Source of the DNA: Escherichia coli
GTDB lineage: Bacteria; Pseudomonadota; Gammaproteobacteria; Enterobacterales; Enterobacteriaceae
NCBI RefSeq assembly: GCF_045037415.1
Contig: NZ_CP173438.1
DNA length: 64,000 nucleotides
Strand: one strand, 5' to 3'
Positions 33,001 to 57,000 of this stretch are shown in pieces. Made by a program: the position numbers. The first letter of the stretch is position 1. Each line of letters starts with the position of its first letter.

Positions 33001-36000
33001 GAATAAATTCTGCCAGCGCATTATTCCGGACGCCTTTAAAAAAGAGGGGAATATAGCCTCTCTCGGCGCGACCCGCCGATTCAGCGAAAGCGAAATGCCA
33101 GGCTTTGGGATCAGTTTTCTCACGGCAATGCTGCCGGTGATCCTGATGGCGGTTGTCACCATCATCCAGATGACTCATGCCAAAAGTGCCGCGGATTCTG
33201 GCTTATTTTACAACGTGATACTGTTCTTAGGTAATTCGACGATCGCCATGCTGATTTCACTGCTGTTCGCGATCTATACCATGGGCCTGGGGCGCGGGAA
33301 AACAATCCCTGACCTGATGGATTCTTGCGGAAAAGCTATCGCGGGTATTGCCGGTCTGCTGCTGATTATCGGTGGTGGTGGTGCATTCAAGCAAGTTCTC
33401 ATCGACTCTGGCGTTGGTCAGTATATTTCCACCCTGGTTTCGGGTATGGATATTAACCCGATCTTGATGGCCTGGGGCGTGGCCGCATTCCTGCGTATTT
33501 GTCTGGGTTCAGCCACCGTCGCGGCGATCTCTACCGCCGGTCTGGTCATCCCATTGTTGGCAGTACATCCCAATACCAACCTGGCCTTGATTACGCTGGC
33601 TACCGGTGCCGGATCCTGTATTTGTTCTCACGTTAACGATGCCAGTTTCTGGATGATTAAAGACTTTTTTGGCCTGACCACCAAAGAAACGCTGTTATCC
33701 TGGACGTTGATGTCCACACTCTTATCCATCAGTGGGCTGATTTTTATTCTGCTCGCCAGCTTAGTTTTATAATCGGGTTCTTGCCAGTGAGCCAACCTGT
33801 TGTTCACTGTCCCCCATAATTTAGTGAGTGACGGCAACCGTCTGCACGGTGACGAATCGCTGGCGATCAAAAAGGGGCGATATTGAACCGTCGATTATGC
33901 TTGATGGGTGTACTCTCAGTAATACTGTAAAGCCGGAGCATGTCTCCGACTTTACAGTATGGGGGAACAGCAGGCGATCGCTCAAATGGTATGCTGGTTT
34001 ATTTCATGTAAAAGAATAAAATATCTGTATAAAATCATGCCACTGGCAATCTGCATCAACTCTCCGGGTAAACAGGGTTAAGATGAGCATTTCCCCGGTT
34101 TAATACAGGTATACAAAAGTGGATAGAGATCAAACAAACAGCAGCCTGTTCAATGATGATCCCGTACTTCATGCAACATGGCTGTACTATCAGGAAGGCA
34201 AAAGCCAGACTGAAGTTGCAGCTATCATGGGGGTGTCCCGCGTCACGGTTGTCAAATACCTGCAAACAGCCCGGGAAAATGGACTGGTTCATATCAACCT
34301 GGATGTGAATGTCTTTGGCTCTATCGACGCTGCTTTGCAAATTCGCGATAAATTCAATCTCCAGAGAGTGATCATCGTGCCGGATGGCGAACATGCCGGA
34401 AAACGTGATGATACAAAGCTGATGCGGACTCGCCTTTCACGTGCCGGTGGCATGTATCTGAATCAGGTGATTGAGAATGGTGATGTGCTGGGGGTTGCCT
34501 GGGGAAGAACAATCCATCAGATGAGCAAAACCATGACGCCGAAGTCATGTAAAAATGTCACCGTTATACAGATGCTCGGTTCCATGCCATCTCAGCCAGA
34601 CCTGACGATCATTGAATCCTCATCGCAAATCGCCTACAAGCTTTCAGGCCGTGTCGCCTCGCTGCACGTGCCCGCCGTGGTATCAAGCGCCAGACTGGCC
34701 ATGGAGTTACAGGCAGAGCCTATTATTCGATCGAATTTTGACGTTCTGACTCGCTGTACGAAAGCCTTTTTTGTCGTGGGTAACGCGCTTGATGAAAATC
34801 CCCTGATTCGGGTGGGCGTGCTGAATAAGAAGGAAATGCAGACGTATCGGGATTTAGGCGCAGTAGGTGTCATTTGTGGTCGCTTCTATGACAAGGAAGG
34901 GATGCCCGTCGTGGCTGATGTTGACCAGCGTATTCTGGGAATCAGTCTGGCTCAGCTAAGGCAGATTGAACGGAAGATCTTCCTTGCTGGTGGGGAAAGA
35001 GGCTATGACGCAACGTTGGGTGCCCTGCTGGGAGGATATGTCACGGACCTGATTGTTGATGAAGGAACGGCAGAGTTTTTGCTGGCGTGTGAATTACCAC
35101 ACTAAAAGAATGAACAACTGCCCCATGTGGATATGGGGCAGGATTTTATTGATTAGCGGCGATAATAAGAACAATACCCACAATGTATGAAATAAACATG
35201 GTCAGCAGCAGTTTATTGGTTCCGGCTGGCGCACTGGCAAATTCTCTCCAGATGAAGACTCCCCAGATCACGGCAATCATTGTGGCCCCCTGTCCCAGAC
35301 CGTAGGAAATGGCATACCCCGCCTGACCAGACGCAATCAGACTGAATGCCAGACCGACACACCAAATCATACCGCCCAGCCAGCCGCAAACATGATCCCG
35401 TAAGCTCCCGGAAAAATACATTTTCCCGTTGACCGGTTCTCCTGAAATAGGTTTTTTCATGACCAGCGTGTTAAGGACAAAGTTCGACAAGAACAGCCCC
35501 ACGGCAAACAGAACAAGTGCTGAGTAAGGCGTCATCAGACCGCTGGCAGGCTGGCTGAAATTGTCAGACATGGAGTCCGCCAAGAAGCGGAAAAACCATC
35601 CCATGATGATACCCGCCAGAATGGCAGTAATGAGAACCTTTATTACGGCGAGATTTATCCGCCTCCTGCGTGACACGACCATAGGCTATCGCGGTAAAAA
35701 TAATGGCGCTCACAACGCAGGCGACACCGAGGAACAGAATGAGCGGATCGCCCTGCGGATTGCCGATATAGGTGGTGATCACACCCAGAGCCAGTGCCAG
35801 CCCCACACCCACAGGAAAAGCTACCGCCATACCGGCAAGATTAATAGAAGCGACCAGAAGAATATTGGAAATATTGAAGATAATCCCTGCCAGTATTGCC
35901 GACATCAGACTACTGCTGCTCGCCTGCTGAATATCAGGTATAAAACTGCGACCGGCTTCGCCCATAGAACCCAGCGTGAAGGCAAATAACAAAGAACACA

Positions 36001-54000: not shown

Positions 54001-57000
54001 CGCATGTTTTAGTTTTGTATCATCCCATCCTGTAGGTAAGGGCCACTGCTTTATGCCAAGTTGAGCCGCCCGATTAGCATATCTGGATACAACGGAAGGG
54101 GAGATTGCAAGACTACGACCAATTTGTCGATGGCTGAGTCCAACACCGTATTTAAGCCTAAGAATTTCTTTAAGTTTTCTCATAGAAATTGGAACTGTTG
54201 GCATAGGTATCCTTTACCGGAATGGCAAAAGATACAGATCAACACACCTGTGAAGTTCCAATAACATTGATGGAGATCACTGAATAACAAAATGAGTCAA
54301 AAGTGATCTCCATCGATGTTATTCAGCGATCTGTTCAAATGTTATTACCCGATCTCGATGGAAGTTATTGAGTGATCTCCTTTCATGAAAATACGCAGGT
54401 GCGAAGGCCGGACTCAAACATGCGATTTAACCTCATGATTTAAAATTGTTAATAATAAACAACACCATCCTATACCAACACAGATACCAACACGAAAAAT
54501 CACTGGTTTTCGGCATCGAACCAGGACAATCAGGTCCTGATTGAGATACCGAGCTCTGTTACTCGTCATCTTCCTCGACAGGCTCCATTGCATCAAGTGG
54601 TACTCGCACCATCGCGATAGAACCAATCCGGATAAAAGCATCTTCCCCATCTATATCGGTTAACTGATATCGCTTACTTGATGCCGGATAATTGTGTCGA
54701 TTGGCAACAGTGTACTCTTTCGTACAGCCAGAATGTGGCAGACTGAGGTGGAATAGATAACGTCCGTATGCCCGCTGACCACCTCCGGGCGGGAGAGTGT
54801 GGTATCTGACATCATCATTTTTCCTTTCTGTTTATAAATGAAAATGCCAGCCGTGTTCAGGCTGACGTCAGGGAAGTGAAATCGGGTGAGTGATCTTCAC
54901 TGGTTCTGGTACAAAAGTTACTGTTGGCGCAGGGTACGGATACCCTCCCTGGCCTGTGCGATACAGGGCAACAGTGCTGCCGAATCTGTTTTATCCTCAT
55001 CGTTGTCGAAGATAATTCCCGATTCGCAGTCGATATTGTCCTGCAGCCACGTAATCAGAATATCCAGCGCTGTTTCCGTGGTTAATGATTTCATGTTGTG
55101 AATTTCCGGATTACCAGTCGAAAGTGGGTAAACCCGGCAGATATCCGGCACTGGCATCCAGATGAATGAGACTGACACCATAACACCGGATGAGTGTGAC
55201 GACCAGACGACGGAACGTTTTTGACAGCCCCAGGCGCTTAAGCCGCAGAACCGGGTATGACCACGTATCGGTACGTAACAGATAACCGGTACCGGTAAAA
55301 TGAATCCATTCTGATTCACCGAAGTCACTGGTCTGGTGTGACAGCGAGTACAGCCAGGCGTTGTCCGTTTCCGTGATATGTGCGGTACTGCAGCGTATGC
55401 CGGTAAGGGCAACAAATGGTGGCGTGCAGTCTGCTGAGGTCCGGTCAGATTCATCAACAACACGAAGGGAGTAGCCGTTATCGCAGACCATGTTAATCAG
55501 TTCAGCGAGATTAACACCATCAATGTCAACGACAATGCGCCCCATGTTCAGCGCCTGCACGTTAACGCTGTCGGCTTCCAGCGTCAGGGCCAGTTTCATC
55601 GTTTCGCCTCCGGATGCTTCCCCAGGGTAATGTTATTTACCGTTCTGTAATTGTCGCGGATCATCAGGCCTGTTGCCCGGCGAGCCCGGAGGATATCGAT
55701 GCTGTTTATTAACTGAGAGTGGGTACAGGCGCTGAATCCCGGCAGGTCGGTACGTACCAGTGCGTATTTTTCCACGAGAAAGTTCACTGCATCACACAGT
55801 GAAATGCCTGCCTCAATATGCTGCTCAATCACACGTTCATCAGCGAACGGTGTGTCATTCAGCGTAAGGCCGTAGTGCTGGTCCAGCAGTCGGGTGAGCA
55901 GTGTCTGCCAGATGGTGACTGGAGACGGGCAGCACGATACCTCCCGTACATGCGTGTCGGGTAATGTTTTCATACTGAAGATTTTCCTGATATGCAGAGA
56001 TAAAAAATGGGACAGTGGCGTGGTGAAAACACCAGGCCGGAGCAGAAGGTTATTCTGGTGGTTTACTTTTTCGTTTCAGGTGTCGGATAAACAGCCAGAT
56101 AAACGTAACCACAGGAGCCGAGGGTGTCGGCTTCACAGGTCAGCCCCTTCGCATACAGTGTCACGGTATGCTGATGGCGGGGATTCAGTTCACCACTGGT
56201 GAGCATTAATTTCAGTTGTTTCATCAGCAGCGGAAAGGCCTGGTCCAGAGGGTACGCATCCGCATCTCTGAACCGGCCTCTGATACCGGCACGGTCGGCA
56301 AGGTAATGCAACCGGTTACCCTCCTGCACCAGACGGGCGCCGAAACAGGGCGTCACTGTGCAGGGTAGTCCCCACCAGGGATGGTCGTCATTGTCATCGG
56401 GATGCGTTGTCCCGGAAAGTGTGTCTGACACGATAAAATCCTCACAGAAAATCGGTGAATGATAGTTTAACGATGACGGGTCAGCCGGCGCGCAGACCGG
56501 CTTCGGTAAAGGTGTATTCGTTGATGAGCAGGACCTCATCCACAGCGGCGTCTGAGCTCTGCCAGTCGTACTCGTTTTCCGGGTGACGGAACATCAGTTC
56601 AGGGTGACGCTCATCAGCCGGACATACGGACCAAAACTGTCCTTACGGCGTTCTGCAAACACGGCCAGCACACCGGGAATATCCTGCACTTCACGACCGG
56701 TATACGCTTCAGCACTGCCGTGCCAGCGGTATTTGCCGGTACAGAACGGAAAAAGACGGGATGCCGGATGCTGACGGTGAATACGCATGGCTTCGCCACG
56801 GGTGATGATTTTCATAGTGGGATACCTCTGAAGACAGAAGATAAAAGTGAAAACAGGTGTGATGTGGTTGTGACGGGTTAAAGCAGACCATATTCGGCAA
56901 AGGAGAAAACCTGGCTGCCACCGACTATCAGATGGTCCGGCACCCGGATATCCACCAGGCCCAGTGCCTGTACCAGACGTTCCGTGATAAGGCGGTCTGC

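Follow-up and report, generated by a model that had tools for sequence, protein, structure and literature searches.

A probable mosaic of modules at the leuX-distal end of GI-leuX: the accessory segment beyond yjhU in Escherichia coli ST131

INTRODUCTION

How did some 19 kb of accessory DNA come to lie beyond yjhU in Escherichia coli, and did it arrive as one unit? The question is raised by a 64,000-nucleotide stretch of contig NZ_CP173438.1 (assembly GCF_045037415.1), hereafter the window, in which a reading of the sequence alone (the original prediction) had marked positions 35106-54400 as accessory DNA between a K-12-like backbone, reaching as far as yjhU, and a CP4-like module. The segment was predicted to hold a salvage cluster, a decayed glycosyltransferase gene, an McrBC-like pair, a restriction-modification (R-M) locus disrupted by an insertion sequence (IS), and IS3-like and IS21-family elements. 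RefSeq annotation places every one of these genes where it was predicted, and the segment is indeed accessory and horizontally acquired, being the distal part of the published genomic island GI-leuX (PMC3203889, PMC4850260, PMC4659465). Here, the anatomy, junctions and distribution of the region are established. We conclude that the 19 kb is very probably the leuX-distal quarter of the GI-leuX of sequence type 131 (ST131) and a mosaic of separately evolving modules that no single insertion produced.

RESULTS

A probable leuX attachment scar at the right boundary

The window was compared with 5,426 complete genomes, to which all distribution counts below refer. Over positions 33000-56000 the window matched E. 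coli O25b:H4-ST131 chromosomes at 100% identity, and at least 80% of that interval was present in 533 genomes. Gene calls were taken from the RefSeq annotation of strain 4993 (NZ_CP103557.1) and covered the window and 75 kb past its end. Ahead of the segment the gene order is fimH through fimB, nanC, nanM, yjhR, topAI, yjhQP, sgcXBCQAER, yjhIHGF and yjhU. After the segment comes the CP4-like module (cbtA, a yeeU-type antitoxin gene, a radC-like gene, an antirestriction gene, DUF932, Ag43/cah and a GTPase gene), and past the window end lie IS66, an esterase gene, IS1, ykiE-fecIRABCDE, further IS elements and cargo, a gene for a truncated tyrosine recombinase, and leuX. The leuX gene occupies 4,552,184-4,552,268 of NZ_CP103557.1 and lies 55.9 kb beyond the right edge of the segment.

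A search for leuX-derived sequence returned one significant match in the window, directly to the right of ISEc12. ISEc12 is a 2,581-bp IS21-family element carrying istA and istB (51817..54397, minus strand). The element ends in TG...CA, and 5 bp of its target, GGTGC, are duplicated (51812-16 and 54398-402). To its left is a leuX-terminator-like sequence followed by TGGTGC, the first 6 nt of a scar of the leuX 3′ end (51767..51816, plus strand), and to its right is GAAGGCCGGACTC (54403..54415, plus strand), which reads as the leuX 3′ end in reverse complement and belongs to a 14-nt exact match. When ISEc12 was removed, the site read …CACAAAAAAAGTCGCCCTTGAGCGACTCGATTTGCATACGGTA-TGGTGC-GAAGGCCGGACTCAAAC and was the best-scoring site in the window. 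It aligned first to the leuX terminator and then, over the tRNA part, to the leuX 3′ end in reverse complement, with a single 1-nt gap and a single mismatch there. Of the leuX 3′ end, 19 of 20 nt are present in the restored site, which also has a diverged leuX terminator and lies in the orientation of leuX itself. Because the order is native terminator, tRNA 3′ scar and then island, we take the site to be an attR, interrupted by ISEc12. The IS-free attR site was found at 100% identity in 544 genomes, and the leuX-terminator sequence was present downstream of leuX in many. The right boundary that had been predicted is thus meaningful, for a reason that the original prediction had not seen.

If the site is an attR, the empty state should consist of the neighboring IS3 scar, the terminator, an intact leuX and the ahr side. 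Such an arrangement was found over its full length at 92% identity in 12 genomes, and its terminator-leuX part was found at 96-97% identity in many more. The IS3 scar is a degenerate IS3-family element whose translations retain an OrfA N terminus and an OrfB C terminus (51139..51765, minus strand); it is homologous to strain VCSW7 over 51151-51393 and 51483-51778, and it adjoins leuX in genomes with a minimal locus. VCSW7, one of the 12, has only ~5.4 kb between nanS and leuX, occupied by a phosphorothioate-DNA-binding endonuclease gene, genes for a C5-cytosine methyltransferase and an NmeDI-like endonuclease, the IS3 scar and leuX, and it has no homology to the window from 14,990 to 51,150. 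We conclude that the 55.9 kb from scar to leuX is a discrete P4-type island, immobilized by truncation of its integrase, and that the flagged segment is part of an older layer, formerly the immediate downstream neighbor of leuX. The distal end of the P4-type island is annotated at 54416..64000 (minus strand) and carries gene remnants, DUF957, DUF5983, cbtA, the yeeU-type antitoxin gene, DUF987, the radC-like and antirestriction genes, DUF932, Ag43/cah and the GTPase gene. Inserted in the IS3-family scar is a 62-bp miniature ISEc12 (51072..51133) made only of fused left and right terminal repeats, a derivative resembling a miniature inverted-repeat transposable element, with a 5-bp CCTGG duplication at 51067-71 and 51134-38.

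Alternatively, the whole 75 to 79 kb from leuX to the transporter gene beside yjhU could be one integrative element, with the flagged 19 kb as its cargo end, and the internal leuX-like site could be a chance match or a secondary attachment site. GI-leuX was defined as 79.1 kb long (PMC3203889), with the R-M system EcoMI included (PMC4659465), and was acquired by the ancestor of ST131 clade C, which gained the region in one step (PMC4850260); moreover, leuX lies 75,094 bp from the K-12 breakpoint described below in strain 4993. The two sizes may differ because EC958 has an extra CMY-23 insertion in GI-leuX (PMC4850260). However, the internal site extends well past a 14-mer and has the order and orientation of an attR, the IS3 scar and terminator stand directly beside intact leuX in the 12 genomes noted above, and strain M9 has the McrBC-like module in the nanS-leuX slot with other partners. 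Furthermore, no attachment repeat is present at the boundary between yjhU and the transporter gene, which is set only by a deletion in K-12. We consider a single element of this extent unlikely and favor a P4-type island beside an older layer.

The left boundary and a probable deletion in K-12

BLAST alignment showed window positions 19844-35203 to be collinear with K-12 at 98.9% identity. The K-12-like gene order predicted up to yjhU was thereby borne out, except that collinearity ends 98 bp past the start assigned to the segment, that is, 98 bp beyond yjhU. The endpoint falls within the gene for a GRP-family transporter, and K-12 keeps the last ~58 bp of that gene (35146..35203, minus strand) directly abutting the end of IS1F. 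K-12 homology restarts at the corresponding end of the IS1 beside ykiE-fecI and continues at 99.7% identity through fec. The outer junction of this IS1 is identical in K-12 and ST131, and only the inner flank differs. K-12 is without the 39,354 bp between the transporter stump and IS1F, no target duplication flanks IS1F in K-12, and the K-12-type junction between the stump and IS1F was found in 357 genomes. In ST131 the IS1 beside ykiE-fecI (sequence L003, 11300-12500) likewise lacks a target duplication and sits against a fragment of an IS3-family element; the deletion in K-12 was probably preceded by another IS1-associated rearrangement.

The simplest reading of these alignments is that the K-12 lineage lost 39,354 bp by an IS1-associated deletion. 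One such deletion would remove the dihydroxyacetone phosphate (DHAP) shunt, the defense genes and the CP4-like module together. The difference from K-12 is thus better read as a K-12 deletion that runs on through the CP4-like module than as a 19-kb insertion. A transporter-gene stump in K-12 would also explain why K-12 has an orphan MtnR regulator. Nor is the DNA to the left a chromosomal backbone, as had been proposed, since the stretch from yjhU via sgc to yjhR is the K-12 KpLE2 leuX element, which minimal genomes such as VCSW7 do not have.

A second deletion was apparent elsewhere. In ~440 genomes the match to the window stopped 650 bp upstream of mtnK and was followed by a CbtA gene. In strain 190, window position 40,050 is joined cleanly to 55,876, such that 15,825 bp (40,051-55,875) are gone and cbtA is truncated. 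The absence of the 15,825 bp from genomes of the strain 190 type is a derived state, and the deletion is recurrent. We conclude that patterns of presence and absence in the region arise by deletions and not by insertions.

Modules that differ in composition and distribution

Uniform GC content and codon usage had been named as grounds on which to reject horizontal acquisition, and neither was uniform. Four 1-kb intervals at 47-51 kb had GC contents of 31-36%, the lowest in a window that averages 47.7%, and a finer profile placed the low-GC block between ~44.8 kb, just past the McrC stop codon, and ~51.07 kb. The block coincides with the Eco31I cassette (44.8-51.07 kb), which is 34% GC. Its genes have GC fractions of 0.33-0.36 and third-position GC contents (GC3) of 0.21-0.27, against GC3 values of 0.52-0.61 for the sgc genes and 0.37-0.59 for the fim genes; the CP4-like genes have GC3 values of 0.57-0.66. 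The genes of the DHAP shunt are compositionally ordinary (GC3, 0.47-0.56), and mcrB and mcrC (GC, 0.45; GC3, 0.46) are slightly under sgc and not distinguishable from fim. The expectation that the defense genes would be strongly AT rich thus holds for the R-M cassette and fails for the McrBC-like pair. Codon adaptation indices, indicative only as the weights were genome-average K-12 codon frequencies, were 0.55 for the R-M genes, 0.57-0.61 for McrBC and 0.62-0.72 elsewhere; GC3 is the robust measure. A foreign composition of the R-M cassette is supported.

At least three modules, and not a single unit, make up the 19 kb, and they differ in GC content, allele diversity and distribution, each being present in 11-20% of complete genomes. 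At a coverage of at least 80%, the DHAP shunt (49% GC) was found in 1,078 genomes, nearly all at 99% identity or above; the McrBC-like pair (45% GC) was found in 982, of which 633 were at least 99% identical and the rest 80-99%; and the Eco31I locus was found in ~630, all at least 99% identical.

These data bear on the proposal that one island of ~19 kb was inserted as a unit into a K-12-like backbone between yjhU and the CP4-like module. Collinearity with K-12 does end near 35.2 kb, IS elements stand at or near the right edge, and the mean GC content of the segment (43.5%) departs from that of the yjhR-yjhU stretch (50.8%) and of the CP4-like module (54.4%); the segment thus has the atypical composition and variable presence of an island. 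Against an insertion of this kind are the fusion of the K-12 transporter stump to IS1F and the extension of the missing 39,354 bp through the CP4-like module, the unlike GC contents and distributions of the modules, the absence of the supposed backbone from minimal genomes, and the regulation of the operon by yjhU from across the proposed boundary (PMC12632272). Nor does the 19 kb have the marks of a P4-type island: it is not adjacent to a tRNA gene, a tRNA scan of the window having returned none, and the annotation of 35.1-54.4 kb contains IS transposases and no integrase, the sole integrase being the truncated one beside leuX. No direct repeats bound it, as the right attachment scar (51811-16 and 54403-15) pairs with leuX and the left edge has no repeat. 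We regard insertion as a unit as highly improbable and retain the reading of separately evolving modules.

An Eco31I cassette with a split endonuclease gene

The biochemical functions given for the modules in this and the following sections derive from the literature. An Eco31I-type type IIS restriction endonuclease gene (44933..45517 and 46768..47925, plus strand) is split by ISEc52, a 1,250-bp IS3-family element (45518..46767, minus strand), into open reading frames (ORFs) of 195 and 360 amino acids. ISEc52 has inverted ends TGAAGTGG...CCACTTCA, and 3 bp of its target (ATT) are duplicated at 45515-45517 and 46768-46770. In silico removal of ISEc52 and one ATT copy restored a single ORF of 579 codons that scored 663 bits against TIGR02986 (cutoff, 444), confirming the IS-disrupted R-M locus that had been predicted. 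Both ISEc52 and ISEc12 have terminal repeats and duplications typical of their families, and excision of either restores its target. The endonuclease junction was intact at 100% identity in 612 genomes and disrupted in 17. We conclude that disruption of the endonuclease gene by ISEc52 is a rare sublineage event.

Two methyltransferase genes lie downstream on the minus strand and overlap by 8 nt. The first encodes the C5-cytosine methyltransferase M2.Eco31I/M2.EcoMI (GGTm5CTC; 47938..49128), which scored 176 bits against TIGR00675 (cutoff, 101) and matched the PADLOC MTase_II model over its full length. The second encodes the N6-adenine methyltransferase M1.Eco31I/M1.EcoMI (GAGm6ACC; 49121..50743), which scored 662 bits against TIGR02987 (cutoff, 353). 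The two constitute the N6-adenine and C5 pair of the Eco31I, Alw26I and Esp3I systems. The methyltransferases have been reported as 100% identical to M1 and M2.Eco31I, EcoMI on GI-leuX being Eco31I, and GAGm6ACC was 100% methylated in EC958 (PMC4659465). Eco31I is described as a type IIS enzyme that cleaves at GGTCTC 1/5 (Bitinaite 1992 and 2002, as cited in PMC4659465), and the enzyme of this module would cut unmethylated GGTCTC. With its endonuclease gene split by ISEc52, this sublineage retains the two methyltransferases as orphans.

Single-base differences lend indirect support to the GGTCTC/GAGACC specificity and may point to continued methylation. All three single-base indels relative to a consensus or reference, at 18362, 35636 and ~62760, fall within the Eco31I motif: GGTCTC became GGTTCTC in an intron reverse transcriptase gene, GAGACC became GAGAACC in the transporter gene, and GAGACC became GAACC in the GTPase region. 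The variants are rare (6 of ~2,690 records; 10 of 1,237 genomes) and look like methylation-linked errors of long-read basecalling. If so, the three apparent frameshifts are artifacts, and M1.Eco31I is active despite the broken endonuclease gene; we infer that the orphan methyltransferases continue to act. The GAGACC indels also warn that methylation-linked assembly errors can yield false pseudogenes. With an IS-inactivated endonuclease and intact methyltransferases, the sublineage may accept foreign DNA more readily and yet keep its methylation mark.

Eco31I sites were scarce in the window, with 11 GGTCTC/GAGACC occurrences against ~28 expected under a crude mononucleotide model, and the R-M genes contained none against 1.4 expected under the same model. 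A search of PLSDB for a plasmid origin of the cassette returned only two E. coli records carrying it and otherwise only short, weak methyltransferase matches; we suspect that one of the two records, an 834-kb "plasmid," is a misassigned chromosomal fragment. The ISEc52 copy in the endonuclease gene is identical to, and inverted relative to, a first copy in the window (16323-17084 and 19356-19843). No target duplication surrounds the first copy, whose flanks are CGA and CTT, and the yjhR gene next to it is truncated at the N-terminal end; these features suggest an IS-associated deletion at that site. Inversion between the two copies was ruled out, as the copy in the endonuclease gene retains its own ATT duplication.

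An McrBC-family pair unlike that of K-12

Upstream of the cassette, two genes that overlap by 8 nt encode an McrB-family AAA+ GTPase of 691 amino acids (41469..43544, plus strand; Pfam AAA_5) and an McrC-family nuclease partner of 428 amino acids (43537..44823, plus strand). The best matches of the McrB-like protein in the PDB were the McrB AAA+ domains 6ut3 and 6hz4, down to an E value of 9e-55. An AAA+ GTPase domain followed by an overlapping McrC-family gene places the pair in the broad McrBC family of type IV, GTP-dependent systems. Identity between the McrB-like protein and K-12 McrB is 40% and confined to residues 389-611, the AAA+ core, and an insertion of ~135 amino acids follows the Walker A motif. 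The McrC-like protein is 25% identical to K-12 McrC. Both subunits scored far below the curated cutoffs for EcoKMcrBC equivalogs (McrB, 143 bits against an NCBIfam cutoff of 637; McrC, 98 bits against an NF007277 cutoff of 338), and the 5-methylcytosine-binding N-terminal domain of the EcoKMcrB type was not found. PADLOC has no model that recognized these proteins as McrB and McrC, the McrB-like protein giving only weak matches in its AAA+ region to "REase_II" models.

Residues 1-235 of the McrB-like protein had no match to K-12 McrB, Pfam, PDB sequences, PADLOC or PHROGs. The region is predicted to be all alpha, and a homologue search with it returned only close enterobacterial relatives and no Pfam domain. 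AlphaFold2 models of residues 1-240 were all helical, with predicted local distance difference test scores of 56 without an alignment and 57 with an alignment of 13 sequences, too poor for fold searches. The ST131 McrBC has been called "the same type IV system" as that of K-12, "in a syntenic location" (PMC4659465), an equation that is borne out neither by sequence nor by location. By analogy with the family, McrB hexamers of this module (41.3-44.8 kb) would presumably translocate with GTP and activate the McrC nuclease on modified DNA.

The pair also occurs apart from its present neighbors. In M9 a 95% allele (94.8%) likewise occupies the nanS-leuX slot, with a type I R-M system as its neighbor, whereas in TB06053 a 90% allele (89.6%) lies within a tRNA-Phe island. 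The homology shared with M9 and TB06053 is confined to positions 41286/41438 through 44812/44818. The slot by the IS3 scar that Eco31I holds in ST131 is filled in VCSW7 by the C5-methyltransferase and NmeDI-like pair, and because different R-M pairs occupy it, the nanS-leuX interval acts as a hotspot for defense genes. A fragment of a phosphorothioated-DNA-binding endonuclease gene of the SBD-HNH type lies beside a nanS remnant at window 14743-14989, and the gene is intact in VCSW7 and M9 (sequences L008, 15411-19369, and L009, 7990-8862).

The DHAP-shunt operon and its regulator

The leftmost module (35.1-40.05 kb) is the salvage operon. Its genes lie on the minus strand and encode the kinase MtnK (38052..39311; TIGR01767, 522 bits; cutoff, 275), the isomerase MtnA (36927..38042; TIGR00512, 410 bits; cutoff, 279), the class II aldolase Ald2 (36255..36896; NF005984, 361 bits; cutoff, 264) and, last in the operon, the GRP-family sugar transporter (35146..36151). 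Ald2, which acts on 5-deoxyribulose-1-phosphate and methylthioribulose-1-phosphate (PMC10986504), scored under the FucA equivalog cutoff. With three enzymes above cutoff, the transporter present and mtnR convergent, the operon is a DHAP shunt. The transporter gene is broken into two ORFs by the 1-nt insertion at ~35636 described above (GAGACC to GAGAACC), a variant found in 10 of 1,237 genomes and probably a sequencing artifact.

The regulator is yjhU (34119..35105, plus strand), which encodes a SorC/DeoR-type protein and gave an NCBIfam DeoR-type match below cutoff. Experiments have identified it as MtnR, which represses the mtnK-mtnA-ald2-transporter operon (PMC12632272). Thus, yjhU lies just outside the flagged segment and is functionally part of the operon, and the left boundary that was drawn at yjhU cuts a functional unit. 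The mtnR gene is widespread and the operon is not (PMC12632272); the text of that paper was searched and nowhere mentions loss of the operon, a remnant of it or an insertion sequence.

Upstream of mtnK is a 799-bp promoter and 5′ untranslated region (39312..40110, minus strand), identified by its length, which is exactly that given in PMC12632272; there, the region holds promoters P1 and P2 and sites for CRP and MtnR. The left breakpoint of the 15,825-bp deletion (40050/40051) falls inside this region. The interval ends at the stump of a family-2 glycosyltransferase gene (WP_000788354; 40111..40365, plus strand), a decayed gene whose 84-amino-acid N-terminal fragment aligned only to positions 6-87 of profile models 250-334 residues long. 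The shunt converts 5-deoxyribose or methylthioribose to DHAP and an aldehyde under the control of MtnR and CRP (PMC10986504, PMC12632272). In this scheme, Pfs frees the 5-deoxypentose, MtnK phosphorylates it, MtnA isomerizes it and Ald2 cleaves it to DHAP and the aldehyde; the module together with yjhU/mtnR permits growth on 5′-deoxynucleosides.

Other features of the window

The first ISEc52 copy is interrupted at 17085-19355 by a 2,271-bp group II intron with GTGTG…CTAC termini, an ltrA reverse transcriptase/maturase gene and an Rfam Intron_gpII match at 19269-19355; strain 4993 is without the intron at this site. The fimB gene is interrupted at 8219-10103 by a 1,885-bp ISL3-family element, annotated as ISEc53 family, that also carries a ClbS/DfsB-like gene and is 38% GC. 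The element is the fimB insertion already known from ST131 clade C, where it was named ISEc55 (PMC4850260). The fimS switch (6373-6693) is in the orientation opposite to that of VCSW7 and the same as that of K-12 MG1655. Upstream of Ag43/cah, between that gene and the GTPase gene, Rfam detected an IS102 RNA at 62252-62488 on the minus strand (RF00124, 68 bits). This position presumably matches that of the RNA between yeeP and flu in K-12 CP4-44.

DISCUSSION

Three processes best account for the structure of the region: integration at leuX, insertion of IS elements that left clean target duplications, and deletion. The flagged segment consists of cargo modules and has no mechanism of its own. 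On balance, we lean toward a layered GI-leuX, in which an attR scar separates the P4-type island from an older leuX-proximal layer that includes the DHAP shunt and its regulator, in which K-12 suffered an IS1F-linked loss, and in which the McrBC-like pair is a distinct type IV system with an all-alpha N-terminal domain and not the EcoKMcrBC that the literature takes it for. As part of the same reading, the older layer in minimal genomes would be a defense islet of ~5 kb, in which R-M cassettes (Eco31I, NmeDI-like and type I) and a portable McrBC module have been swapped beside a conserved IS3 scar.

Several points weigh against this account. The order of events is deduced from the structure of junctions and not from a phylogeny. 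The 12 genomes with an empty state match at only 92% and are thus relatives of the ancestral site and not the site itself. A second leuX-derived repeat, which would be the left-hand attachment partner bounding the older layer, was sought, but neither the rest of the window nor the 75 kb toward leuX contained a match of 12 nt or longer. The IS1 event in K-12 could have been recombination between two IS1 copies and not a one-ended adjacent deletion. Finally, clade C may have gained the whole 75 to 79 kb in one import by homologous recombination (PMC4850260), and the region would in that sense count as one acquisition in this lineage.

All components of the region (GI-leuX, EcoMI/Eco31I and the DHAP shunt) have been published, and the segment is real but ordinary. 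What is added here is incremental: an internal attR scar, the K-12 deletion, the 15.8-kb deletion, a rare IS-disrupted allele and the nonequivalence of the McrBC pair. Growth on 5′-deoxynucleosides, which the region encodes, is a fitness trait enriched among extraintestinal E. coli, and the two defense systems of the region shape which plasmids and phages are acceptable to ST131. The refinements correct how island boundaries, and gain versus loss, are read in comparative genomics. The interest of the region is chiefly one of bookkeeping for a clone of clinical importance, and it introduces no new kind of biology.

Comparison with known systems places each part of the region. The DHAP-shunt operon of ATCC 25922 (PMC10986504, PMC12632272) has the same mtnK-mtnA-ald2-transporter content and order, the same 799-bp interval to the glycosyltransferase stump WP_000788354 and the same convergent mtnR/yjhU; nothing substantive differs, the transporter frameshift of the window being probably artifactual. 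Eco31I has the same two methyltransferases (N6-adenine, TIGR02987, and C5), likewise encoded by overlapping genes, and a divergently oriented endonuclease gene (TIGR02986), which is split by ISEc52 in the window whereas the EC958 enzyme is apparently full length (PMC4659465). EcoKMcrBC resembles the present pair in having an AAA+ GTPase and an McrC nuclease encoded in an overlapping two-gene operon but differs in its unrelated N-terminal domain and in the ~135-amino-acid insertion found here, and K-12 mcrBC sits at a different locus, at 4.577 Mb, beyond fim.

The K-12 KpLE2 element (leuX to yjhR) shares yjhR, topAI, yjhQP, sgc, yjhIHGF and yjhU with the window at 98.9% identity and IS1-ykiE-fecIRABCDE with ST131 at 99.7%, each in the same order, but is without the DHAP shunt, the McrBC-like pair, the Eco31I cassette, the CP4-like module, IS66 and the esterase gene. 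The GI-leuX of EC958 (Totsika 2011, PMC3203889; Forde 2014, PMC4134206; Ben Zakour 2016, PMC4850260) is the same DNA: it is linked to leuX, contains fec, the Ag43/CP4-like module and the EcoMI (Eco31I) R-M system, and occurs in clade C but for the most part not in clade B or SE15. Whereas those papers treat GI-leuX as one island, here an internal attR scar splits off an older distal layer. The sublineage of the window differs further in having ISEc52 in the endonuclease gene and ISEc12 in the attachment scar, both of which most carriers of GI-leuX are without (612 and 544 genomes, respectively).

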